Shown here in pieces: positions 42,075-52,984 of a stretch of 64,000 nucleotides of DNA (its first letter is position 1; each line of letters starts with the position of its first letter). Made by a program: the position numbers and the translations under genes. The notes under the pieces were generated by a model, which was not told the origin of the DNA, ran no database searches, and was given only the letters and a program-made list of their open reading frames with translations. The DNA is taken from the sequence record MZ311865.1; one strand, written 5' to 3'. This DNA is from Escherichia phage vB_EcoM_LNA2.

Positions 42075-42437
42075 TTAAAAGAATTTAAATTTTTTCTTGG
42101 TCCGTTCATTAAAAGCTTGTTGTACTTGCATTGTAATACATTTTTCAACATGCGGTGCAAGTTCTGCTTTTCTGTCCTGGTCAAGAACTGCAAAGTCCAT
42201 TACGATTTTACCATCAACCCAGTCTAGTTTTGTAATATAGACTATATGATGAGAACCATCTTCAAGTGTAATCAGAATCTCTTGAATGACATTTTCCATT
42301 GCTGAACGGATAATTTTAAGAGATTCATTAAACACTCGTTCTTTGCGAATGTCTTCCCCTTCCGAAGAAGGGGATTCATCAACGATTTCTAGATTTAAAT
42401 CATCGAGATTATTCATCGAAATCTTCCATTTCATCAA
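42075..42437 (-). CDS. 40: gp40-like head vertex assembly chaperone candidate
   Basis: 120-aa ORF between uvsX and 41 as T4 gene 40; assignment by synteny only. Confidence 0.45.
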   Translation of the reverse strand: MMKWKISMNNLDDLNLEIVDESPSSEGEDIRKERVFNESLKIIRSAMENVIQEILITLEDGSHHIVYITKLDWVDGKIVMDFAVLDQDRKAELAPHVEKCITMQVQQAFNERTKKKFKFF

Positions 42438-43581
42438 GGTCGTTTTCTATATCTGCTGCAGACGGAGCATCAGAAGTTTTAACCGGAACTTTAGTTGTTG
42501 CTTTGCAATTAATAAGGTCATTAACAGCGTCATCAACTTCTTTAATAGAAGAGATAGCACCTAGTTTATATTTAGTTTCAATTGCATCTCGGAAAGGTTT
42601 GTGTTTAAACAAAGGTCCCCAGAATTCTACACAATCAGTAGCTTTAGCACGCCATGATTTTTCTTCACGAATCATTTCGCCAGTTTCTTCGTCAAGGAAT
42701 TCACGAGCATACCAACCAGCTTTAGGCTTAACTACAAAACCAATTTCAGTTGCCATTTCTAACAAGCCACTGAATGGGTCGATACCACCATCAAAATTAA
42801 CAGTGATTGGGAAAGTAGATTTTTCTTTAACGGTGCGAGATTTTTCCGCTTTCAACGTGAAGTCATAACCGGTCAATTCTGTACCTTCTTTAACCTGACG
42901 TTTAGAGATAAAAAATACCGTGTTGGCAGAATAAAGAATACCTGTACCACCACCCATAATCTCTTTAGGATACAATCCGCCGATTTCCATTGCTGTATGG
43001 TTGATTGCAACACATGGAATATCTTTAATAGTCAGATAAGGAGTCACAATGCGGAACAGAGATTTAAGTGCCTTAGCACGAGACATATCACCTACAACTT
43101 TCTCGTTCAATGCATCTTCAGTTTCTTTCTTAGATGCAGTATTACCGATTGAATCGATAAAGATAATAACTTTATCACCGCGTTCAATCGCGTCAAGCTG
43201 ATTAGTCATATCAACTTTAAGTTGTTCGACAGATTGAATCGGAGTATGAACTACACGGTCTAAATCAACACCCATTGAACGAAAATAAGATTCTGAAGCA
43301 CCAAATTCAGAATCATAGAACAAACAAATTGCATCTTTATATTTCTTCATATATGCTGCAACCATGGTCAGCCCAAACAACGTTTTAAAGTGTTTAGAAG
43401 GAGCAGCAAAAATAGTTAAGCCTGATTGCAACCCGGCATTCAGTGCACCACCTAATGCAATATTCAACATCGGAATACGAGTAGGGACTTCATCACGATT
43501 ATTAAACAGCTTAGACTTAGTCAAGTCTGCAGTCATTTTAGAAGTAGAAGCTTTAATCAGACGAGATTTTAAATCAGACAT
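42409..43581 (-). CDS. uvsX: UvsX recombinase (RecA-like)
   Basis: 390 aa; MSDLKSRLIKASTSK...KNGWYAREFLDEETGEMIREEKSWRAK...FWGPLFKH.PFRDAI matches recalled T4 UvsX. Confidence 0.9.
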   Translation of the reverse strand: MSDLKSRLIKASTSKMTADLTKSKLFNNRDEVPTRIPMLNIALGGALNAGLQSGLTIFAAPSKHFKTLFGLTMVAAYMKKYKDAICLFYDSEFGASESYFRSMGVDLDRVVHTPIQSVEQLKVDMTNQLDAIERGDKVIIFIDSIGNTASKKETEDALNEKVVGDMSRAKALKSLFRIVTPYLTIKDIPCVAINHTAMEIGGLYPKEIMGGGTGILYSANTVFFISKRQVKEGTELTGYDFTLKAEKSRTVKEKSTFPITVNFDGGIDPFSGLLEMATEIGFVVKPKAGWYAREFLDEETGEMIREEKSWRAKATDCVEFWGPLFKHKPFRDAIETKYKLGAISSIKEVDDAVNDLINCKATTKVPVKTSDAPSAADIENDLDEMEDFDE

Positions 43582-43680: not shown

Positions 43681-44229
43681 TTAACGAGCCCATTTGATAA
43701 TTTCTGTAATCAAATTATTACGTTCGCTTGCATTAAATCCTATAACTTTGTTAGCACCATCATGATTAAGTAATTGATACGTTTGGATTTCGTTATGAAT
43801 TGCAAACTCTTCAAAATATGAAATGACTGTATTAAAACCAAATGAAGACAAAGTAATAAGGTCGTCTTCAAAACTTTCAGTCATTTCGTTACGTGTTAAA
43901 ATAATTGTGAACACATCATGGTTTTGGCAAAGACGAACATAGTCCTGTTCATAAACGTCAAGAACCGAGTCCGCATCTTGTCGAATACGTCCGTAAACCC
44001 AGTTACTAATATATCCACGGTCTAATAGATAAATCTTAGTAGGGTCTAAATAATTCAACATCGTTTCGAAACAGCCAACTTCATTTCGAGACTTAACATC
44101 GAAACGTCCATCAACTGTTCGTTTAGGGAAATCAATCTTTACATATCTTTCACTAATTTCCATTATGTCATTAATGAAAGTTGTTTTACCAGCATTATCT
44201 GGGCCATCTACTAAAATAATTTTAGCCAT
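43681..44229 (-). CDS. P-loop NTPase / small kinase-like protein
   Basis: 182 aa; Walker A LVDGPDNAGKTT at N-terminus; occupies T4 uvsX-beta-gt interval. Confidence 0.5.
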   Translation of the reverse strand: MAKIILVDGPDNAGKTTFINDIMEISERYVKIDFPKRTVDGRFDVKSRNEVGCFETMLNYLDPTKIYLLDRGYISNWVYGRIRQDADSVLDVYEQDYVRLCQNHDVFTIILTRNEMTESFEDDLITLSSFGFNTVISYFEEFAIHNEIQTYQLLNHDGANKVIGFNASERNNLITEIIKWAR

Positions 44230-44230
44230 T

Positions 44231-45130
44231 TTATTCCTCGATTACGACATCTTCATATTTAGGTATATTATACGGTGAAGAAATTAAAGCGTTAAAGTAG
44301 ATGAACTCACCAAGACCTGGATGGAATACTTCTTCAGGATTTTCGAAATATTGAATTTTCGGACGTCCTTTAAGAATTTGATAGTACTCAGTTTTAGTTG
44401 GTTTAAAAATTCGAATCAACGCTTCTTCAGGATACTTATTTCTGTCGAAGCTATTATTTGGATCGGTTATATAAAGCGGTTGACCTAATTGAATTGCGCA
44501 TTCAACAACTTGTTCAAAACGATAGCATGGGTCACTAATTCGAAATGGATGAAAAATACCATCTAGATGAATAGGAGCCAAATCACCTACAAGACGCTGC
44601 ATGATGGAAGGACGTATAACTTTCTGCGTTACGATAATCTTATTACCATCTGCACCAGCGTTAACCAGCACTTCTTTTTGACGTTCATTCAACACAGTAG
44701 TTTGAAGTGAACGATTAACCGACAACATATCGGTTTTTAAGAATTCGTCAATATAAAAACGTGGTTTATTAGGGTCTGCAGTGATATTGAAATTGAATTC
44801 CGCATCAAAAGCGCCGTCATATCCAGTGATATCTGTGATTAGAAAATCACAGTCATAATAAGCAATTAATGAATCAACCACAAATTCATTTTCAGACCAG
44901 AAATATTTACGAGTGTTATACGCGTTATCTTTATACCATAATGGAACAAACTTAAATTCTGGAAAAAGACGTTCGCATTCTTTAATATCAGATGCATTAC
45001 GTGGATATGTAATCACATCACCCGGATTAGCACGGTGCAAATGAAGTTGGAAGTTGCCATCCTTAAGGATAGCATACTGTCCAGTTTCATAAGACCGCAT
45101 ACTCAAGATAGGTACGCGGAAAATAGCCAT
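44231..45130 (-). CDS. hypothetical protein in beta-glucosyltransferase slot
   Basis: 299 aa between uvsX and gene 42 where T4 has beta-gt; no resemblance to recalled T4 beta-gt. Confidence 0.5.
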   Translation of the reverse strand: MAIFRVPILSMRSYETGQYAILKDGNFQLHLHRANPGDVITYPRNASDIKECERLFPEFKFVPLWYKDNAYNTRKYFWSENEFVVDSLIAYYDCDFLITDITGYDGAFDAEFNFNITADPNKPRFYIDEFLKTDMLSVNRSLQTTVLNERQKEVLVNAGADGNKIIVTQKVIRPSIMQRLVGDLAPIHLDGIFHPFRISDPCYRFEQVVECAIQLGQPLYITDPNNSFDRNKYPEEALIRIFKPTKTEYYQILKGRPKIQYFENPEEVFHPGLGEFIYFNALISSPYNIPKYEDVVIEE

Positions 45131-45846
45131 TAGTCAAGGAATCCTTTAACATAATCAAAATCACGTTCAAACACATGGGCACTTACCATGGTATGAGTAT
45201 AATCACCAACTTCTACACCACATTCTTTAGCGATATAATGAAGTAATTTTCCTTGGAGATAAAAATCCAACTGCATAACAACAGCACAGTTCTGAGAACG
45301 CATATGACAGTGGGTATAAAGCTTACCATCACGAATATAATAAGTCACTGAGTCAGTACATGGATATTCAAGTGTTTCGTCCGAATCAAGCAAAGCCTGA
45401 TCAGAACTTTCTAGAATTTGGAACACAACTCTTCGAGAGTTAGGCTTCTCTTTAAGTTCTTTTAGAAGAGCTGGTAATTGGGCCGCAATGCGAGGACCAT
45501 AGAAAGTGTTGAAGTTCGCCGGCAAAACATCTGATTTTGGTTTAGAAATAAATTTAGCGACATTAGGATATGCCTTAAACGCTTCTTCTGCGTTGGTACC
45601 ACCAGAAATCATAAACTTCCAGAAGTCTTCGGCATATTCATAAGAGATGCGGTTAATACGTGGGTCGGTCATTTTGAATGATGATGGAGTGTCAACAACT
45701 ACTGTCATAGACCCAATTTCATTACAACGTCCAATACGAGAATCAGTTACGAATTCCGGGTTTTCTAAAATTTCACGATTGACAGCTTTAAATGCGGATT
45801 GAAAATCTGCGGCTTTAATATATTTCATTGTGTTATGTTTTCCCAT
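45130..45846 (-). CDS. 42: dCMP hydroxymethylase gp42 (thymidylate-synthase fold)
   Basis: 238 aa; YPCTDSVTYYIRDGKLYTHCHMRSQN resembles TS/dCH catalytic-Cys region; conserved position. Confidence 0.75.
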   Translation of the reverse strand: MGKHNTMKYIKAADFQSAFKAVNREILENPEFVTDSRIGRCNEIGSMTVVVDTPSSFKMTDPRINRISYEYAEDFWKFMISGGTNAEEAFKAYPNVAKFISKPKSDVLPANFNTFYGPRIAAQLPALLKELKEKPNSRRVVFQILESSDQALLDSDETLEYPCTDSVTYYIRDGKLYTHCHMRSQNCAVVMQLDFYLQGKLLHYIAKECGVEVGDYTHTMVSAHVFERDFDYVKGFLD

Positions 45847-45978
45847 GTTTACCTCAATACAATTTATTATATACTCAATTCATAAAGCTTATTTGAATTT
45901 CTTAGCGATGTTGATATAACGTAAAGCTTCAGCATCGATATTTCCAAGAACACTATGAAGAAATGCATCAGCGTAGTA

Positions 45979-46128
45979 TTACAGTTGAACAGGTTCTTTA
46001 ATCACTTTAGCCGCTTTAGTTTCAAACAGGCCCATCAGGGCCTTTTTAAGAATTTGTTCGTTAGTGTTCAGTTTCGTAGTCAAAATCTCTTCATTAAGTT
46101 GGTGGTTAAAAGTTTTTCTAGAAATCAT
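45979..46128 (-). CDS. small protein (49 aa) coupled to Cys-rich enzyme gene
   Basis: Hand-translated MISRKTFNHQLNEEILTTKLNTNEQILKKALMGLFETKAAKVIKEPVQL; ATGA overlap with upstream gene. Confidence 0.3.
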   Translation of the reverse strand: MISRKTFNHQLNEEILTTKLNTNEQILKKALMGLFETKAAKVIKEPVQL

Positions 46129-47285
46129 TCCGGGTACCTCAAAGCGTCATCAGAGTTAGTTATATCAATAATAGATATAGAGTTTTCTGATAACCCATTT
46201 TTAGATAACTGACGTTTATAATATCTTTCACAATATGTACACGTTGACCCACAGATTTCATTAGCACAATCGAAATCTGGATGTCTGAACCACCTTTTTT
46301 CTAAAAAGCCATCTAACAAAGAGGTTTCAATATTTACTGTATGTGAAAACTCAGTTTCGTTTTCAAGAGTGAAAATAGTCTCTAAAGGCTTCCACAGTTC
46401 TAACAAATTACCTTCAAACTTTTCAGAAGCGTATGCTTCAAGAACTTTCAAAATGTAGTCTGTGCTACCTGTACGTCCTGAAACTTTGAATTGAGTGATA
46501 CCAATATCATTATAAAGTTTCAAATCTTGAGGACGAACAAAACGAGTTCTCAACCAGTTAAATGGGTCTGTATCACGAGCTTTAATACAGTGCTGCATAG
46601 GATATCCGTTTAAGGATTTAGCATCATCAGCTGTAACATCAGTACTATGGAAAATATAGCAAGAGTCACGATAGCTACAATGTGTTGTATACCCTTTACC
46701 AGCATTAGAACAGAACTCATTTACAAGAACTTCAAATATTATATTGTTCTTATTACAAAACTCTGCTGCACGCTTCAGGAAAGAAACTGAACGGTTCTTA
46801 TGAATTCCACAGCAGACCTTTTTGATATTATATTGGTCGTGCAAGTATTTGATTTGAGTTACAGCATCGACATGTAGAATTGTTGAAACTTCAATCTCAA
46901 TGTCTTTATTGACTTCACGAACAATTTCCATAACAACAGGGTTAGCGATAGTAATACGCCATACGCCTATTGACCAAAGATACTGAACATAATCCTGAAT
47001 AGCTTTCTTCTTCCACTCAACTAGTTCTCTTTTTGAACCAGGATTTATCGTGTTGAGTGTATAGTTAAAGCAAATACCTAATTCGTTACAACGTTTAACG
47101 TAATCTTCTAACATCTTTTTGTCAACGTCAGGAAGCCTAAAATCAGGTCTGGCTGCTACAAAAGCCATTTCTCTTGTAGAGCCGTATACTTCGTTTATCA
47201 AGCTATTAGGATAAGTTTTATTGAGCTCTACGATTTTATCAAGAAGAGCTAAATCAAAATTCGTTCCGATTTTAAAAGTATTCAT
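46125..47285 (-). CDS. Cys-rich enzyme of unknown function (possible Fe-S/metal enzyme) in sugar cassette
   Basis: 386 aa; Cys clusters VCCGIHK, EFCSNAGKGYTTHCSYRDSC, C-terminal DCANEICGSTCTYC (CX3CX2C). Confidence 0.5.
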   Translation of the reverse strand: MNTFKIGTNFDLALLDKIVELNKTYPNSLINEVYGSTREMAFVAARPDFRLPDVDKKMLEDYVKRCNELGICFNYTLNTINPGSKRELVEWKKKAIQDYVQYLWSIGVWRITIANPVVMEIVREVNKDIEIEVSTILHVDAVTQIKYLHDQYNIKKVCCGIHKNRSVSFLKRAAEFCNKNNIIFEVLVNEFCSNAGKGYTTHCSYRDSCYIFHSTDVTADDAKSLNGYPMQHCIKARDTDPFNWLRTRFVRPQDLKLYNDIGITQFKVSGRTGSTDYILKVLEAYASEKFEGNLLELWKPLETIFTLENETEFSHTVNIETSLLDGFLEKRWFRHPDFDCANEICGSTCTYCERYYKRQLSKNGLSENSISIIDITNSDDALRYPE

Positions 47286-47343
47286 TTTTTTGCATCTCGC
47301 GTTAATTGATGCGATGGTTTTTTTGCAGGTCTTACTTAAATTA

Positions 47344-47745
47344 TTATAGATTCGGTTTATACGATTTAAATGTTTCGAATTCGCCTTTATTCATAAGAGC
47401 TTTGAATTCGTCAGGACGCATAGCTTTGTCGTCGATAATCCAATCATATACTGGTTTATGTGTTAGCAAATTATGGTACTTCAAGCCAATGTTTGCCAAG
47501 TTCTGAATCAGACTTGGGAGAATGTCAATTGCTATACGACCAGGACCTACTGACTTCATACCGCGAGCAGTGTAAAGCGTTATGGTATGCCCTGCATCAT
47601 ACAGAGCATTAATGGCAGACACCATTTCGGTGTCTGGTTTGAAGTTCACGTAATCACGATTGTTATTCCATTCCGTGATGCAATCATCGACATCAAAACA
47701 AAGATTAAGCATGTTTTCTACACGGTGCATTAGATTCGTTCCCAT
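47344..47745 (-). CDS. HAD-superfamily phosphatase (KdsC-like)
   Basis: 133 aa; motif I FDVDDCIT, motif II ITLYTARG, motif IV WIIDDK. Confidence 0.6.
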   Translation of the reverse strand: MGTNLMHRVENMLNLCFDVDDCITEWNNNRDYVNFKPDTEMVSAINALYDAGHTITLYTARGMKSVGPGRIAIDILPSLIQNLANIGLKYHNLLTHKPVYDWIIDDKAMRPDEFKALMNKGEFETFKSYKPNL

Positions 47746-49415
47746 TGATGAGTGATATCGCCACCGATTGGACGATAGGAAACACCAGTTTCTTTATCAG
47801 TTAGTACCCATTTACCAGGATTTTTTGTAATCAGAGTAGCCGTTACAGGTTCTGCTACGTCATAACTAATAGAGCCGTCTTGAAGTACACGGCCCATATT
47901 ACGTAATTGCTTAGTCAGAAGTTCCATACCTTTATAATATGCGGCTACCGCTTTAAGTGGATTATTCTTGAAATAACCACCTAATGCAATCCAGATAATT
48001 GCTACAGCCAAATGATGATACTCGTTAAACGAACTCATCTTTCCATATTTGTAAACTAGTGGATTGATGTTAATAGTCACATTACAAGTTGTTTCGTCAA
48101 TAGTAAACTGTCCCCAGGTCGGATTAGCGTTGAATTCATCATAACCTGAAACAGCATAAAGCACTTTAGCTTCATCGTACAATTTTGGCCCGTAAATCTT
48201 GGTTTCACCAAAATATCCACGAGGGTCGATAAACTTGACTTCGCCGTTATCAGTAATCATAGTATTACTGAAGTTCGGGTCGCCGTGAATAACAGAGTAC
48301 TGTCCCTGAGAACGGTTATGATAACGAATAAGGTGTTCTAAAGCTTGTTTCAGCATTGGCTTCAGACGTCCAATCTTAGTGTAGTTCACATGTGTGATTT
48401 TACCAAATGAATCAATCAATGGTTGAATGCTTTCACAACGATCAATAACTTTCGTATAGAATTCTTTAGTGAAATCACGACGAACAGTTTCAGGACTTAC
48501 AAAATAAGTGTCTGTGCTGAATTTCAGTGCATCTAAAATTGCACCAACAATTTGTGGACGAGCAAGACTTGATTTGGATTTAATATATTCAAATGCCGGC
48601 TTACCTTTAATGCGTTCCATTTCAAAGTTATTTTCATTAACAGAAACTAACTGAGGGACTGAATCTGATTTCACTTTAAGATACCATGAAATCTCATCTT
48701 TCTGAAGAGCTCGACCCTGTTCGGTTAATGCGAATTTAGTTACAGTTTCTTCACCAATTTCAACTGCATTAAAACTACGATTAAGTTCACGAACTTCATG
48801 AGCTTTTTCAAGTTTAGGCATATCACCTAAATCAATTAGATTCATAAGCTCTGATTTATTGAATGTGCTGCCGTAAAGGAATTCTACGAAATCACGTCCT
48901 TTGCAGTATTCATGAATTTCCTCATCAGTAGAACCCATATAGAATTCCCAGTCTTTGAACTGATAAATTCCTACAACATTACCACCTGTTGAACCTACGT
49001 TAGTGATATTTTCACCGTCGAAATTATATCGACATTCGTCACCCTTAACATAGATTGCGTTAACATTCCAAGACCATGAACCAAAATCGGGAATAATATC
49101 ACACCAGTTAACAATTACGTTATGGCCGTCTAAATCTTTGTGTAATTTAGCAAGAGCATAAGCAGAACCATACGCTTCATCAACTGTACGAATAGTCACA
49201 TTGAACTCTTCTTGCTCACAATAAGCTCGAACAGTTTCAGCAAATTTTGAATGAACTACTACAATAATTTCATCTGCGCCAAGGTCAGAATAAATTGTAT
49301 ACAAATTGCTCAGAATAGTGTCTTGTTTATAGTTAACAAGCACCTTAGGAATATGATGCGTTATTGGATACAAACGAGTTGCTAATCCAGCACCAAGAAT
49401 AACAGCTTTTTTCAT
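47730..49415 (-). CDS. bifunctional sugar-1-phosphate nucleotidyltransferase / anomeric sugar kinase
   Basis: 561 aa; N-term KAVILGAGLATRLYPIT (RmlA/GalU-type); C-term VIHGDPNFSNTMI...FIDPRG (APH/choline-kinase-like catalytic loop). Confidence 0.65.
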   Translation of the reverse strand: MKKAVILGAGLATRLYPITHHIPKVLVNYKQDTILSNLYTIYSDLGADEIIVVVHSKFAETVRAYCEQEEFNVTIRTVDEAYGSAYALAKLHKDLDGHNVIVNWCDIIPDFGSWSWNVNAIYVKGDECRYNFDGENITNVGSTGGNVVGIYQFKDWEFYMGSTDEEIHEYCKGRDFVEFLYGSTFNKSELMNLIDLGDMPKLEKAHEVRELNRSFNAVEIGEETVTKFALTEQGRALQKDEISWYLKVKSDSVPQLVSVNENNFEMERIKGKPAFEYIKSKSSLARPQIVGAILDALKFSTDTYFVSPETVRRDFTKEFYTKVIDRCESIQPLIDSFGKITHVNYTKIGRLKPMLKQALEHLIRYHNRSQGQYSVIHGDPNFSNTMITDNGEVKFIDPRGYFGETKIYGPKLYDEAKVLYAVSGYDEFNANPTWGQFTIDETTCNVTININPLVYKYGKMSSFNEYHHLAVAIIWIALGGYFKNNPLKAVAAYYKGMELLTKQLRNMGRVLQDGSISYDVAEPVTATLITKNPGKWVLTDKETGVSYRPIGGDITHQWERI

Positions 49416-49456
49416 GTTGTGGTCCTCATTGGTAAGTAGGTGTATTGTACACTATT

Positions 49457-49600
49457 CTAGTTAAAGCATTCATACTTTGCTTGTAGTCCAATCATAATCC
49501 ATCCAATTACAAGTGTTGGAATCATTACTGGAGCCGTTAAGCTCCAGTAGATAGTCATGGCAAGCATCAATAGTAAAAGTCCTATTGTTATTGCTTTCAT
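49457..49600 (-). CDS. small membrane protein (47 aa) inside sugar cassette
   Basis: Hand-translated MKAITIGLLLLMLAMTIYWSLTAPVMIPTLVIGWIMIGLQAKYECFN; start overlaps SIS gene stop. Confidence 0.3.
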   Translation of the reverse strand: MKAITIGLLLLMLAMTIYWSLTAPVMIPTLVIGWIMIGLQAKYECFN

Positions 49601-50232
49601 TGTTCGCCTCGTAACATGGCACCTAGTGCACCGCCTGGATGGAACTTAAGGAAGTCATTAGAGGTAAATCCACGTTCAGACGAAAGGTTGATAGCAAACG
49701 TATCGATAAGCGCTAACAACAATGTAGTGGACATAGTCGGAGCCAGAGAATTCTCATCAACCTCTACCGCGATGCCTGTACAGAAAGAGTAATCAAAAAG
49801 GGCTTCATTTTCTTGTGGAATGTCTGGGTTACAATGCAACAGAATCTGTTTGACGTTCGGTCGAATCATTTTAAGATGCTTAGCCACGCCTATCATTTCT
49901 TCAGTTTTACCAGAACGACTAATATGAATCAACACATCATTAGGCGCAATGAATCCTGCATCACCGTGAGAATAATGCCCAGTGTTCAAGTACATACTCG
50001 GGATACCGAGTGAAGCAAATGTCTCAGAAGCTTTAGTTGCAATATTAGCATTCTTACCAACACCTGTAATAATTACTCGGCTTTCATAATTACTAAGTCC
50101 CGGGCGTCGAAGAGTTTCTAGAATAGCATTATAACGAGCAGGGTTTTGACTAATTACTTTGGCCATAGCGGCCAAAGAAGAAGCTTGTTTTATGATTGCG
50201 TCAATAGCGATAGTAATAGGAGTAGTTTTCAT
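49597..50232 (-). CDS. SIS-domain sugar-phosphate isomerase (KdsD/GutQ-like arabinose-5-phosphate isomerase, no CBS domains)
   Basis: 211 aa; VIITGVGKNANIATKASETFASLG...LIHISRSGKTEE resembles SIS domain of API. Confidence 0.65.
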   Translation of the reverse strand: MKTTPITIAIDAIIKQASSLAAMAKVISQNPARYNAILETLRRPGLSNYESRVIITGVGKNANIATKASETFASLGIPSMYLNTGHYSHGDAGFIAPNDVLIHISRSGKTEEMIGVAKHLKMIRPNVKQILLHCNPDIPQENEALFDYSFCTGIAVEVDENSLAPTMSTTLLLALIDTFAINLSSERGFTSNDFLKFHPGGALGAMLRGEQ

Positions 50233-50272: not shown

Positions 50273-52984
50273 TCAAAAATCGAACATATCGAACAGAGAT
50301 GCTTTCTTCTCGTAATCGAGTTTCGCTGCTGATGTGAATCCTTCAAGTGGTTTAATAAATGTCTTCTCAAGGAGAACAGTGTAGTCCATCCAATGAAGTA
50401 CATCGTCTTTAATTAAATCTGTGATTTCAGTACCAGAAGGCCATGCGATACATTTATCACCGAATGGGTTTCCTTCACGTAAAGGCAGAACATATACTTT
50501 TTCACCTTCTACAACTTGTGGTGCATCGATATTACCTTTGATAGCCCGGTTATACGTCAGAATTCCACGAATATGGAACGGGCATTTAGGACCAGGGAAT
50601 CCACCGACGTCATATTTAGCAATGTTATTCGCAGAAGATACCGACGCGATGCTAATATAATTCAATTGACGGAATTCTTTTTCAAACTCTTTAAAATATT
50701 CTTGTAATGATTCTTCACCTTCTTGAAGCATACGACGAATACATTCTTTAAGAGCTTTCTGTACTGCTTTAGGAGTCGAAGATTTCTGAGTCTCTAGACC
50801 CATGATTTTGAGTTTAGGCTCAGCGTAACGAGTACCTTCCATATCCCACACGTTTAATGCATAACGTTTCTTACCAGTCCAAAATCCGCCAATACCTTTA
50901 GAACCGAGTGGAGGCCCAGCGATAGCTTCTCGGTCCATGAACATTAAGTGTTGTTTATTGTTCATGTATTCACACATTTCACGGAAACCTCTATCAATAG
51001 CAGGTTCCATACGTTCATGTGCAAACTTATCTAAGAAGTCTACCCAATGGTTGGTATCACGGAATTTAGATTCACCAACCTTATCAATAATTTTATCTGC
51101 AGATACGTAAATGGAGTCTGTATCACCATATAGAACGAAAGCTTCACCTTCTGTACCACAAACTTCATTCAGATATTCATTAACTTTACGTTCAATCCAC
51201 TGTAAAGCCATTTGCCCGAATGTTGTGATTGCAGTAGCATTACGCAAATCATAATAACGGAACCAAACGTTTCCAAGTGCACCATAAAGCGAGTTGATGA
51301 GCAATTTACGGTTAATCTGTGCAGTCATACCTGCAACTTCAGTACGTTGAGCTCTAAACAACATTTCATTAAGAGATTTAGCAGACAACTTTTTAATCTT
51401 TTCTTTAATCTCGTCAGTGAAGTCGAAACGATAATCAACATCTAATGGTTCGTCAACAGAAAGATTAGGATTATGCAATGCCTCTTTAATTATTTCACCA
51501 TTACGTTGAGCTGCAAGCATGTAACCTTTATGTTCTTTACGTTGATTAAAGACCTTAGTGATTTCAGTTGGAACTACACCATCACGGTCTTTATAATACA
51601 TCATGCCGTTAGGAGAACAACTGTACACATCAGAAGGACGTTCAGCAACAGCGTTAATATAATCATGCAATGGAGCTACTTTAAACGTTCCTGCTATTGT
51701 TTCTGGGCTAATATTCACTTGGCGAATGATGCTTGGATACAGAGATGTAAGGTCGAAACTCATTACATATTTGTATCGATTTGGAATAGGTTCCTTAACA
51801 AAAGCGCCAGGATAAGGTTGAACCGGGTGAGAACGACCTTGTGGAATCACCTTGTTCTGCTCTTTAAGGCTATTAAAAATAATAGCATCCCATGTTTTAA
51901 TTGGACTAAACACAGATTGAATCTGTATCTTAGCATAATAACCCATGTCCAAACTCAAGTTGATGAACTGACGCTTAGCATCAATTTGCAATACACGATA
52001 CACGTCGATAATGTTATAAGAAATATATCGTTGGTGATTGCTTTCACGAAGCTTAGAAATAGGGCCGTCATATTTCAGTTTACCAACGTTCAATTCAAAT
52101 TCTGAAATGTAATCCAGAGAATACGACGGTTGATTGGTAAAAGAGAATTTTTTGTAAAGGTCAATGTAATCAAGAACAGAGATACCGAACAATGTAATGA
52201 TTTCACGAGAACCATACATGTTTTCGATAACTTTAACACGAGTTTTACGATGTGGTGATAAACGTTTCGCAGTAGATTCGCCAAAAATATTCTTGATTCG
52301 GTTATACACATATGGAATATCAAATGACTCAACGTTCCATCCAGTCAAAATGACAGGAGTTTTCTGTTGCCAGAAGTTGAGATATTCCATCAACAATTCT
52401 TTTTCGTTATCGAACGGCATATAAATGATTTTATCGATAATTTCAGATGGAACTTCATCACCACCTTGTTCTTGAAGTTTAGCAGCGATTTCAATAGACC
52501 ATTCTTCTACATTACCGTATGGAGAATTCAATAGATCAAATACGTAGAACCTGTCGTCAATTGAGTCATAATGGGTGATAGCATCAATCGGATGTTTTGC
52601 TTGTGACGGCTCAGGGAACCCATCTGGAGATGTTACTTCGATGTCGAAGTTAGCCACACGAATTTTTGTATGGTCGTATTTGATTTCATAGTTATAAGTG
52701 TCAGACAAATACGCCAATTTGAAATCGTCCATGCCAAGTGCTTCAAGTCCGATATCTTCCATGCGTTTAATCCATTGGGAGGCATCACGCATATTAGCGA
52801 ACAACTTACGAGTACACGGCTTACCGTAGATATCGAAATATTTCGTAGCCTGACTTTCCGGACAATGAGCAAACAGTGATGGTTTATATTCTACTTCACG
52901 AGTACGTTCACGGCCATTAGAATCGATGTAACGTTCAAAAATTGAATCACCAATCTGTTCAACCGTTAAGTAAAATTCTTTCAT
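50273..52984 (-). CDS. 43: DNA polymerase gp43 (family B)
   Basis: 903 aa; MKEFYLTVEQIGDSIFERYIDSNGRERTREVEYKPSLFAHCPESQATKYFDIYG... matches recalled RB69 gp43; exo DIE and pol YGDTDS motifs. Confidence 0.95.
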   Translation of the reverse strand: MKEFYLTVEQIGDSIFERYIDSNGRERTREVEYKPSLFAHCPESQATKYFDIYGKPCTRKLFANMRDASQWIKRMEDIGLEALGMDDFKLAYLSDTYNYEIKYDHTKIRVANFDIEVTSPDGFPEPSQAKHPIDAITHYDSIDDRFYVFDLLNSPYGNVEEWSIEIAAKLQEQGGDEVPSEIIDKIIYMPFDNEKELLMEYLNFWQQKTPVILTGWNVESFDIPYVYNRIKNIFGESTAKRLSPHRKTRVKVIENMYGSREIITLFGISVLDYIDLYKKFSFTNQPSYSLDYISEFELNVGKLKYDGPISKLRESNHQRYISYNIIDVYRVLQIDAKRQFINLSLDMGYYAKIQIQSVFSPIKTWDAIIFNSLKEQNKVIPQGRSHPVQPYPGAFVKEPIPNRYKYVMSFDLTSLYPSIIRQVNISPETIAGTFKVAPLHDYINAVAERPSDVYSCSPNGMMYYKDRDGVVPTEITKVFNQRKEHKGYMLAAQRNGEIIKEALHNPNLSVDEPLDVDYRFDFTDEIKEKIKKLSAKSLNEMLFRAQRTEVAGMTAQINRKLLINSLYGALGNVWFRYYDLRNATAITTFGQMALQWIERKVNEYLNEVCGTEGEAFVLYGDTDSIYVSADKIIDKVGESKFRDTNHWVDFLDKFAHERMEPAIDRGFREMCEYMNNKQHLMFMDREAIAGPPLGSKGIGGFWTGKKRYALNVWDMEGTRYAEPKLKIMGLETQKSSTPKAVQKALKECIRRMLQEGEESLQEYFKEFEKEFRQLNYISIASVSSANNIAKYDVGGFPGPKCPFHIRGILTYNRAIKGNIDAPQVVEGEKVYVLPLREGNPFGDKCIAWPSGTEITDLIKDDVLHWMDYTVLLEKTFIKPLEGFTSAAKLDYEKKASLFDMFDF

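Follow-up and report, generated by a model that had tools for sequence, protein, structure and literature searches.

The 64,000-nucleotide stretch of Escherichia phage vB_EcoM_LNA2 (MZ311865.1) analysed here, referred to below as the window, carries nine open reading frames (ORFs) between uvsX and the DNA polymerase gene 43, all on the minus strand (Table 1). Read from the gene 43 side, they encode a SIS isomerase, a 47-amino-acid protein, a nucleotidyltransferase–kinase fusion (AfhE), a HAD phosphatase (AfhF), a U32-family protein, a 49-amino-acid remnant, a ThyA homologue, a glycosyltransferase and a thymidylate-kinase-like protein. An initial annotation had described four co-oriented ORFs, those of the isomerase, the fusion, the phosphatase and a Cys-rich enzyme, as a sugar-nucleotide block between genes 42 and 43, where T4 was said to have only imm. 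We recovered all four with the same boundaries on the minus strand, and found the 47-amino-acid ORF as a fifth within the block. T4 has no such cassette; imm and imm.1, and nothing else, sit between its genes 42 and 43.

Table 1. Genes from DNA polymerase gene 43 to uvsX in the window, listed from the gene 43 side
Feature	Position	Strand	Size or remark
DNA polymerase gene 43	50273-52984		
SIS isomerase	49597-50232	-	211 aa
ORF with two hydrophobic stretches	49457-49600	-	47 aa
Nucleotidyltransferase–kinase fusion, AfhE orthologue	47730-49415	-	561 aa
HAD phosphatase, AfhF orthologue	47344-47745	-	133 aa; start possibly 47730
U32-family protein, RB69 gp50 orthologue	46125-47285	-	386 aa
RB69p049-type small ORF remnant	45979-46128 (full-length extent 45889-46128)	-	49 aa
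ThyA homologue, RB69 gp48 orthologue	45130-45846	-	putative 5-hydroxy-dCMP synthase
Glycosyltransferase, RB69 gp46:47 equivalent	44231-45130	-	299 aa; putative DNA arabinosyltransferase 1
Thymidylate-kinase-like nucleotide kinase, RB69 gp45	43681-44229	-	phrog_761 match
uvsX	42409-43581		

The source phage is an RB69-like Mosigvirus. Over the 6.7-kb cassette region its DNA is 98.4% identical to that of RB69, and the encoded proteins are 98–100% identical to their RB69 counterparts where the two can be compared. The same 6.7-kb query is covered to at least 80% in 151 phage records, so the block is no chance feature; 154 of the 210 matching records are 95–99% identical to it, and these come from RB69-type phages of E. 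coli and Shigella. The clusters of RB69 (gp45–gp55) and HY126 (the Afh genes) hold the same genes in the same order, in the same genus-level phage. Protein identities to HY126 are 99.1% (SIS, which is 100% identical to RB69 gp55), 95.7% (47-amino-acid ORF), 96.4% (AfhE), 99.2% (AfhF), 99.7% (U32), 97.9% (ThyA homologue), 99.0% (glycosyltransferase) and 100% (kinase). Apart from point differences, the three clusters differ in the small ORF after the U32 gene, which is cut by a stop codon here: it has 49 codons, as opposed to 79 in RB69, with TAA at codon 50 where RB69 has GAA, and its HY126 counterpart has a frameshift near codon 41. A promoter and terminator scan returned no more sites than shuffled sequence, and we therefore claim no transcription units.

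On the strength of this homology, the block very probably forms part of the published cluster for DNA hypermodification with arabinosyl-5-hydroxycytosine, in which three of its four genes would make the sugar donor. The SIS protein matches Pfam SIS (1e-10) and the NCBIfam families KpsF/GutQ (2e-32) and KdsD (7e-31). Only positions 2–153 of the 268 in the KpsF/GutQ profile, the SIS half, are matched, after which the protein ends; it thus has no CBS pair, as the initial annotation had noted. We read it as a truncated variant of the KdsD/GutQ-type isomerases, which have tandem CBS domains. It shares the SIS catalytic domain with KdsD, GutQ and KpsF, and its product would feed DNA modification rather than Kdo synthesis. 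Its proposed role is the conversion of ribulose-5-phosphate to arabinose-5-phosphate (PMC6024577, PMC13326640).

The fusion protein matches Pfam NTP_transferase (4.9e-10) at residues 3–99 and NCBIfam MurU (7.5e-6), with weak kinase-fold matches at residues 354–409. These matches are those expected of an N-terminal sugar-1-phosphate nucleotidyltransferase joined to a C-terminal kinase of the APH/choline-kinase fold, in line with the RmlA/GalU-type enzyme and APH-like kinase first assigned to it. AmgK and MurU form a recycling pair of separate anomeric kinase and sugar-1-phosphate uridylyltransferase. A minimal nucleotidyltransferase fold and an APH-fold sugar kinase are common to that type and to AfhE, and MurU is the top structural match reported for the fusion (PMC13326640). 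In AfhE, by contrast, the two activities are fused in one 561-amino-acid protein, and the kinase is reported to act on arabinose-5-phosphate, giving a bisphosphate for which a HAD phosphatase is needed. Such a phosphatase, described at the outset as KdsC-like, is the probable product of the next gene: it matches NCBIfam TIGR01689 (capsule-biosynthesis phosphatase, 3e-13) and HAD-SF-IIIA (0.014) and has the DxD signature of HAD motif I near its N terminus (FDVDDCIT), whereas a Pfam search gave no match. This gene is annotated 15 nt shorter in RB69 and HY126, with a start at 47730.

Arabinose was found in RB69 DNA in 2018, when ORF055c and ORF53_52c were proposed to act in UDP-arabinose synthesis (Thomas et al., PMC6024577). 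The order since published for HY126 (He et al. 2026, as described in PMC13326640) runs from ribulose-5-phosphate through arabinose-5-phosphate, arabinose-1,5-bisphosphate and arabinose-1-phosphate to UDP-arabinofuranose. According to the same description, AfhE is both an arabinose-5-phosphate 1-kinase and a UDP-arabinose pyrophosphorylase, and AfhF, a phosphatase that depends on Mg, turns arabinose-1,5-bisphosphate into arabinose-1-phosphate. Given protein identities of 96–100% to HY126 and, where comparable, 98–100% to RB69, we carry these steps over to the phage studied here. The SIS isomerase would supply arabinose-5-phosphate, the kinase domain of AfhE would phosphorylate its C1, AfhF would take off the 5-phosphate and the N-terminal domain of AfhE would form UDP-arabinofuranose. 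The prediction of an activated arabinose donor for DNA hypermodification is therefore borne out by orthology; the donor-sugar role of the cassette was in fact already known, having been proposed in 2018 and described biochemically in 2025–2026. Phages must make this donor themselves, as enterobacteria are not known to make nucleoside diphosphate (NDP)-arabinose (PMC13326640).

Two features of these genes are worth recording. The glycosyltransferase gene and the AfhE-like gene are each one intact ORF in this phage; the RB69 GenBank record splits both through sequencing errors that have been corrected since (PMC6024577, PMC13326640), and the RB69 fusion gene is likewise a single 561-amino-acid ORF after correction by Thomas et al. 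(PMC6024577). The start of the 47-amino-acid ORF overlaps the SIS stop codon, and its hydrophobic stretches look membrane-spanning. It belongs to phrog_3610 (function unknown; 4.5e-27), is kept in HY126 and is annotated in RB69 in a 36-amino-acid version; we considered it as a short Imm and rejected this, as it has no similarity to T4 Imm.

The base to which the sugar is attached differs from the one first proposed. The ThyA homologue had been taken for the gene 42 dCMP hydroxymethylase, yet it is 98.3% identical to RB69 gp48, and alignment with E. coli ThyA and T4 gp42 gives it E143, N169 and D177 (E. coli ThyA numbering), where T4 gp42 has D143, D169 and D177. It thus has the Asn at position 169 that marks 5-hydroxy-dCMP synthases, and not the Asp of gp42-type hydroxymethylases. 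RB69 gp48 yields 5-hydroxy-dCMP, binds flavin and incorporates 18O from O2, with N169 being diagnostic (Lee et al. 2026, PMC13326640); its product is 5-hydroxy-dC rather than hydroxymethyl-dC (PMC13326640). We conclude from these signatures that the ThyA homologue is a predicted 5-hydroxy-dCMP synthase and not a dCMP hydroxymethylase. Liquid chromatography–mass spectrometry (LC–MS) and nuclear magnetic resonance of RB69 DNA identified 5-hydroxycytosine with one or two arabinoses ether-linked at C5, and no 5-hydroxymethylcytosine (hmC) (PMC13326640). An independent LC–MS study of a Mosigvirus, phage NP, also found arabinosylated 5-hydroxycytosine and called the earlier arabinosyl-hmC assignment erroneous (PMC13390438).

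These results bear directly on the original proposal, in which all four genes make NDP-arabinose via free arabinose and the sugar is attached to hmC from a gp42-type hydroxymethylase. The domain families are in principle compatible with such a route, and arabinosyl-hmC was indeed published in 2018 (PMC6024577). We now regard the proposal as highly improbable: the base has been re-determined as 5-hydroxycytosine with ether-linked arabinose (PMC13326640, PMC13390438), the hydroxymethylase is contradicted by the N169 signature and by the near identity to the tested RB69 gp48, the HY126 enzymes are reported, in the account given in PMC13326640, to work through arabinose-1,5-bisphosphate and not free arabinose, and the route offers no evident step for the U32 protein. 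What stands of it is the part played by the isomerase, the fusion and the phosphatase.

In the published scheme as applied here, the ThyA homologue would convert dCMP to 5-hydroxy-dCMP with flavin and O2, and after replication glycosyltransferases would transfer arabinose, as one or two units, onto this hydroxyl group in DNA. The glycosyltransferase, a phrog_3891 member with the features of the cluster's arabinosyltransferase, corresponds to RB69 gp46:47, which was assigned as DNA arabinosyltransferase 1 by structure comparison (PMC13326640). The kinase matches the thymidylate kinases of phrog_761 (5e-45), and its RB69 counterpart gp45 is listed as a ‘nucleotide kinase’ (PMC13326640). The glucosyl-hmC system of T4 (gp42, the gp1 kinase, and alpha- and beta-glucosyltransferases) occupies the same neighbourhood from uvsX to gene 43 and shares this logic, in that a ThyA homologue modifies dCMP and the product is phosphorylated, incorporated and then glycosylated on DNA. 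It differs in having 5-hydroxymethyl rather than 5-hydroxy chemistry (D169 for N169) and glucose rather than arabinofuranose.

The remaining gene of the four, that of the Cys-rich protein, encodes a member of the U32 family. Its product matches Pfam Peptidase_U32 (PF01136; 7.3e-11, 42.2 bits against a cut-off of 22.4), and comparison of a 29-homologue profile with E. coli UbiU, TrhP, RlhA and UbiV gave an hhalign probability of 96.4%. Profile–profile comparison was used because direct MAFFT alignment with these four proteins misplaced the cysteine motif. Ten cysteines are invariant across the 29 homologues, down to 46% identity. Of these, C203, C209 and C233 map onto the UbiU cluster ligands C169, C176 and C232, and E185 maps onto the motif glutamate; the invariant C192, a candidate fourth cluster ligand, sits in a phage-specific NEFC insert, and others of the ten belong to an extra C-terminal CX4CX3CX2C motif. 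An AlphaFold2 model (pLDDT 90) has a TIM-barrel fold, with the U32 protein Mk0906 (5d88) as top fold match in the PDB, as already published; many weak structural matches are to sugar enzymes, and a PDB sequence search with the protein found no match. Characterized U32 proteins carry out O2-independent hydroxylation that depends on an Fe–S cluster and prephenate, at cytidine C5 (RlhA), uridine C5 (TrhP) and the ubiquinone ring (UbiU/V), and among these reports is the demonstration that prephenate is the oxygen donor for UbiU/V (PMC5727448, PMC6599085, PMC10990095). The phage proteins share the U32 domain with this group, whose substrates include cytidine C5, and align with UbiU at three cluster cysteines, but form a distinct, mostly phage-borne subfamily of about 360–390 amino acids, the presumed substrate of which is a deoxynucleotide or DNA.

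Phage records often name this protein a ‘peptidase’ or ‘collagenase-like protease’, as does phrog_5757. A protease is barely credible here, given that the name rests on few old reports and the characterized members are Fe–S hydroxylation factors (PMC5727448, PMC10990095), that the cysteines aligned to Fe–S ligands are invariant, and that the gene lies among genes of nucleotide metabolism rather than of morphogenesis or lysis.

Among cultured phages, the U32 protein occurs in 221 records, all at 80% identity or above, from hosts in the Enterobacterales and Shewanella. Every one of these host genera also has AfhE-positive phages. AfhE homologues are found in 376 phage records; 57 of these are from Acinetobacter, and none of the 57 has U32. 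Cassettes that lack it are seen in Acinetobacter phage AM101 and in JS10, a Dhakavirus of E. coli. The JS10 cassette (L014, 5062-10175) retains Imm and has no SIS, U32 or chorismate mutase gene; this phage would presumably take arabinose-5-phosphate from the host KdsD or GutQ. Where U32 is present, no other cassette protein is as well conserved between genera; its identities are 87.6% in Entb_45 (Kanagawavirus), 82.6% in Bragavirus (in which UvsX is only 63.9% identical) and 79% in Thanatos.

The gene after U32 in Entb_45 is annotated as a chorismate mutase, and 56 phage records, spanning at least eleven genera of hosts, have homologues of it in the interval from U32 to the ThyA homologue. Small AroQ chorismate mutases lie downstream of U32 in Kanagawavirus, Winklervirus, Tegunavirus, Mosugukvirus, Bragavirus, Marfavirus of the F48 type, Gualtarvirus and Shewanella phage Thanatos; depending on the genus, they are either immediately next to U32 or one small ORF away. 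In Thanatos, U32 and the chorismate mutase have been relocated together to another position. All eight sampled proteins match Pfam CM_2 and keep the catalytic R/R/K/E/S/Q residues, which we take to be those of EcCM (Arg11, Arg28, Lys39, Glu52, Ser84 and Gln88). In one IMG/VR contig (L026, 10001-11918), just 44 nt separate U32 from the ThyA homologue, so no chorismate mutase lies between them; as F48-type Marfavirus phages have one, the gene has been gained or lost among closely related phages. In the phage studied here, the slot used for chorismate mutase in other genera is occupied by the small ORF after U32, which looks to be decaying. A diverged chorismate mutase was considered for RB69p049-type ORFs and rejected (hhalign probability 0.1%, no NCBIfam match).

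More than 100 metagenomic proteins are 46–58% identical to the phage U32 protein. In some of these uncultured phages, a dCMP deaminase gene lies immediately upstream of U32 and genes for Tmk, UDG-family, DnaE and SSB proteins are close by; other neighbours include genes for NT5C, dNK and a nucleoside deoxyribosyltransferase, and for a TET-associated glycosyltransferase, a dUTPase/DCD-family protein and a UDP-galactopyranose mutase. Distant homologues are present in 25 of the 40 recovered IMG/VR loci, in recurring layouts. One layout places U32 between two glycosyltransferase genes, in the order dUTPase_2-type NTP pyrophosphatase, Tmk-like kinase, gp46:47-like glycosyltransferase, U32, GT47-like glycosyltransferase and DnaE. 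A second has Tmk-like, SIS and AfhE-like genes, a DAHP synthase–chorismate mutase fusion, HAD and U32, and a third has glycosyltransferase, SIS, AfhE-like, HAD and U32. In some uncultured phages, U32 is accompanied by a kinase and glycosyltransferases but by neither SIS nor AfhE genes. When stop-to-stop translations of all six frames, covering up to 10 kb on each side, were searched with a ThyA-family profile (E up to 0.1), no ThyA homologue of the 5-hydroxy-dCMP-synthase type was found at the uncultured U32 loci; the lone ThyA-family match, in one distant locus, has the canonical dTMP synthase signature (L143/D169/N177). In these phages, U32 occupies the place of the base-modifying ThyA homologue of T4-like phages.

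Several uncultured loci have features of their own. The DAHP synthase–chorismate mutase fusion adjoins U32 in large uncultured phages (L054, 8332-9387; also L050, L051 and L053). A shikimate-pathway entry enzyme is unusual on a phage, and among named relatives this one is closest to bifunctional DAHP synthase/chorismate mutases from Bacteroidota (45–49% identity). We also considered the DAHP_synth_1 gene next to U32 as a KdsA acting on arabinose-5-phosphate; for the fusions of the L054 type this was rejected because of their CM_2 domain and bifunctional relatives, whereas for the unfused gene of 248 amino acids in L011 it is possible. In L049 (8689-9951), an IS605 OrfB/TnpB-type gene with a Cas12f-like TNB domain is inserted between the AfhE-like and HAD genes and U32. 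L007 (8001-15428) has U32 and a second, faint U32-like protein together with NT5C, dNK, a nucleoside deoxyribosyltransferase, an NMN transporter and a radical SAM/SPASM protein; the dockerin and GH43 proteins of this contig may indicate that it stems from an anaerobic Firmicute or from a prophage of one. L012 (3777-12179) combines U32 with a Tmk-like kinase, a TET-associated glycosyltransferase, a dUTPase/DCD-family protein and a UDP-galactopyranose mutase, with no ThyA or TET homologue in view. This layout resembles the galactofuranosyl 5-hydroxycytosine system of RL38JI, from which it differs in having U32.

Because U32 is the best-conserved protein of the cassette, occurs with chorismate mutase elsewhere, is absent from Acinetobacter phages and stands in uncultured phages without a ThyA-like hydroxylase nearby, we tie it to the base and not to the sugar; prephenate chemistry is suggested by how often the gene is linked to one for chorismate mutase or DAHP synthase. 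We tentatively propose, from these comparisons and the family assignment, that phage U32 may be an Fe–S- and prephenate-dependent, O2-independent pyrimidine C5 hydroxylase that serves DNA modification. It would make the 5-hydroxypyrimidine acceptor for DNA glycosylation, most likely at the level of dCMP. Phages that infect facultative anaerobes would thereby have two routes to the hydroxylated base, one through the O2-dependent gp48 and an anoxic one through U32; those of strict aerobes would rely on the ThyA homologue only, and many uncultured phages on U32 alone. Such a pairing of U32 and gp48 would parallel those of UbiI/H/F with UbiU/V and of TrhO with TrhP in E. coli. Mosigviruses would depend on the host PheA and TyrA for prephenate.

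The Cys-rich protein had been placed in the sugar route, and a tailoring role there, such as a reductase or epimerase-like step towards UDP-arabinose, has arguments of its own. The gene lies between that of the HAD phosphatase and the base-modifying genes, the TIM-barrel protein resembles many sugar enzymes weakly in structure, PMC13326640 labels it a ‘sugar or heterocycle reductase’, and the ChristianSchoenbein record (MZ501056.1) names it a ‘putative enzyme involved in UDP-arabinose biosynthesis’. We nevertheless consider this role unlikely, and U32 is probably not a sugar enzyme. Acinetobacter phages and Dhakaviruses have the cassette without U32; Acinetobacter phage DLP3, the published cluster of which has no U32, makes tri-arabinosyl DNA (PMC13326640); some uncultured phages pair U32 with a kinase and glycosyltransferases in the absence of SIS and AfhE genes; sugars are not known to be substrates of any U32 member; and the recurrent linkage to chorismate mutase and DAHP synthase argues for prephenate chemistry. 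The context of the gene in other phages associates it with genes for base hydroxylation, kinases and glycosyltransferases rather than with sugar activation.

A third role, hydroxylation of RNA at tRNA U34 or 23S rRNA C2501 to tune translation, with no relation to DNA modification, would agree with the family shared with TrhP and RlhA and with the manipulation of translation by T4-like phages. It appears quite improbable: domain search and alignment found neither the DUF3656 region of RlhA nor the C-terminal region of TrhP in the phage protein, the gene lies consistently within DNA-precursor and DNA-glycosylation blocks of unrelated phages, and it is absent where the 5-hydroxycytosine system is absent, with all 221 matches in AfhE-positive host genera.

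A number of points weigh against a hydroxylase in DNA modification. All functions in this phage are transferred by homology. The U32 protein has CX5C instead of the canonical CX6C spacing, and UbiU C193, the fourth cluster ligand, has no aligned counterpart in it. Mosigviruses, including this phage, have no chorismate mutase. Dhakaviruses such as JS10 have no U32 although their host, E. coli, is a facultative anaerobe, and the absence of U32 from Acinetobacter phages may stem from one or few evolutionary events. In the uncultured phages, the absence of the ThyA homologue applies to the local DNA and not to whole genomes, and comparison of DnaE polymerases did not identify the hosts of the U32-only phages of approximately 45–50 kb. 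RB69 gp50 itself appears only in Table 1 of PMC13326640, under its reductase label and undiscussed; the discussion there cites RNA hydroxylation by RlhA and TrhP and connects neither to gp50. We found no biochemical or genetic work on U32 for any phage, and full-text searches returned no paper that ties phage U32 to prephenate or chorismate mutase, with the primary texts of two key studies, those of He et al. (2026) and of Mahler et al. (2025), either of which may already give or deny U32 a role, outside the reach of both searches.

The cassette itself adds nothing new, being the published donor-sugar pathway for DNA with arabinosylated 5-hydroxycytosine, a modification that shields phages from restriction enzymes and alters their sensitivity to other defence systems. 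The remaining interest lies in the U32 gene that travels with it. The characterized base hydroxylase requires O2, whereas the gut bacteria that serve as hosts often grow without it; if the proposal is correct, an O2-independent route through U32 would account for the persistence of hypermodification where O2 is lacking. DNA base modification would then gain a new class of enzyme, the pairing of an aerobic with an anaerobic hydroxylase would be known in a third instance, and prephenate-dependent hydroxylation would extend from RNA and quinones to DNA precursors. The gene would also mark out a large set of uncultured phages, at least some of which carry Bacteroidota-type DAHP synthase–chorismate mutase genes, as likely carriers of DNA modifications based on 5-hydroxypyrimidines.

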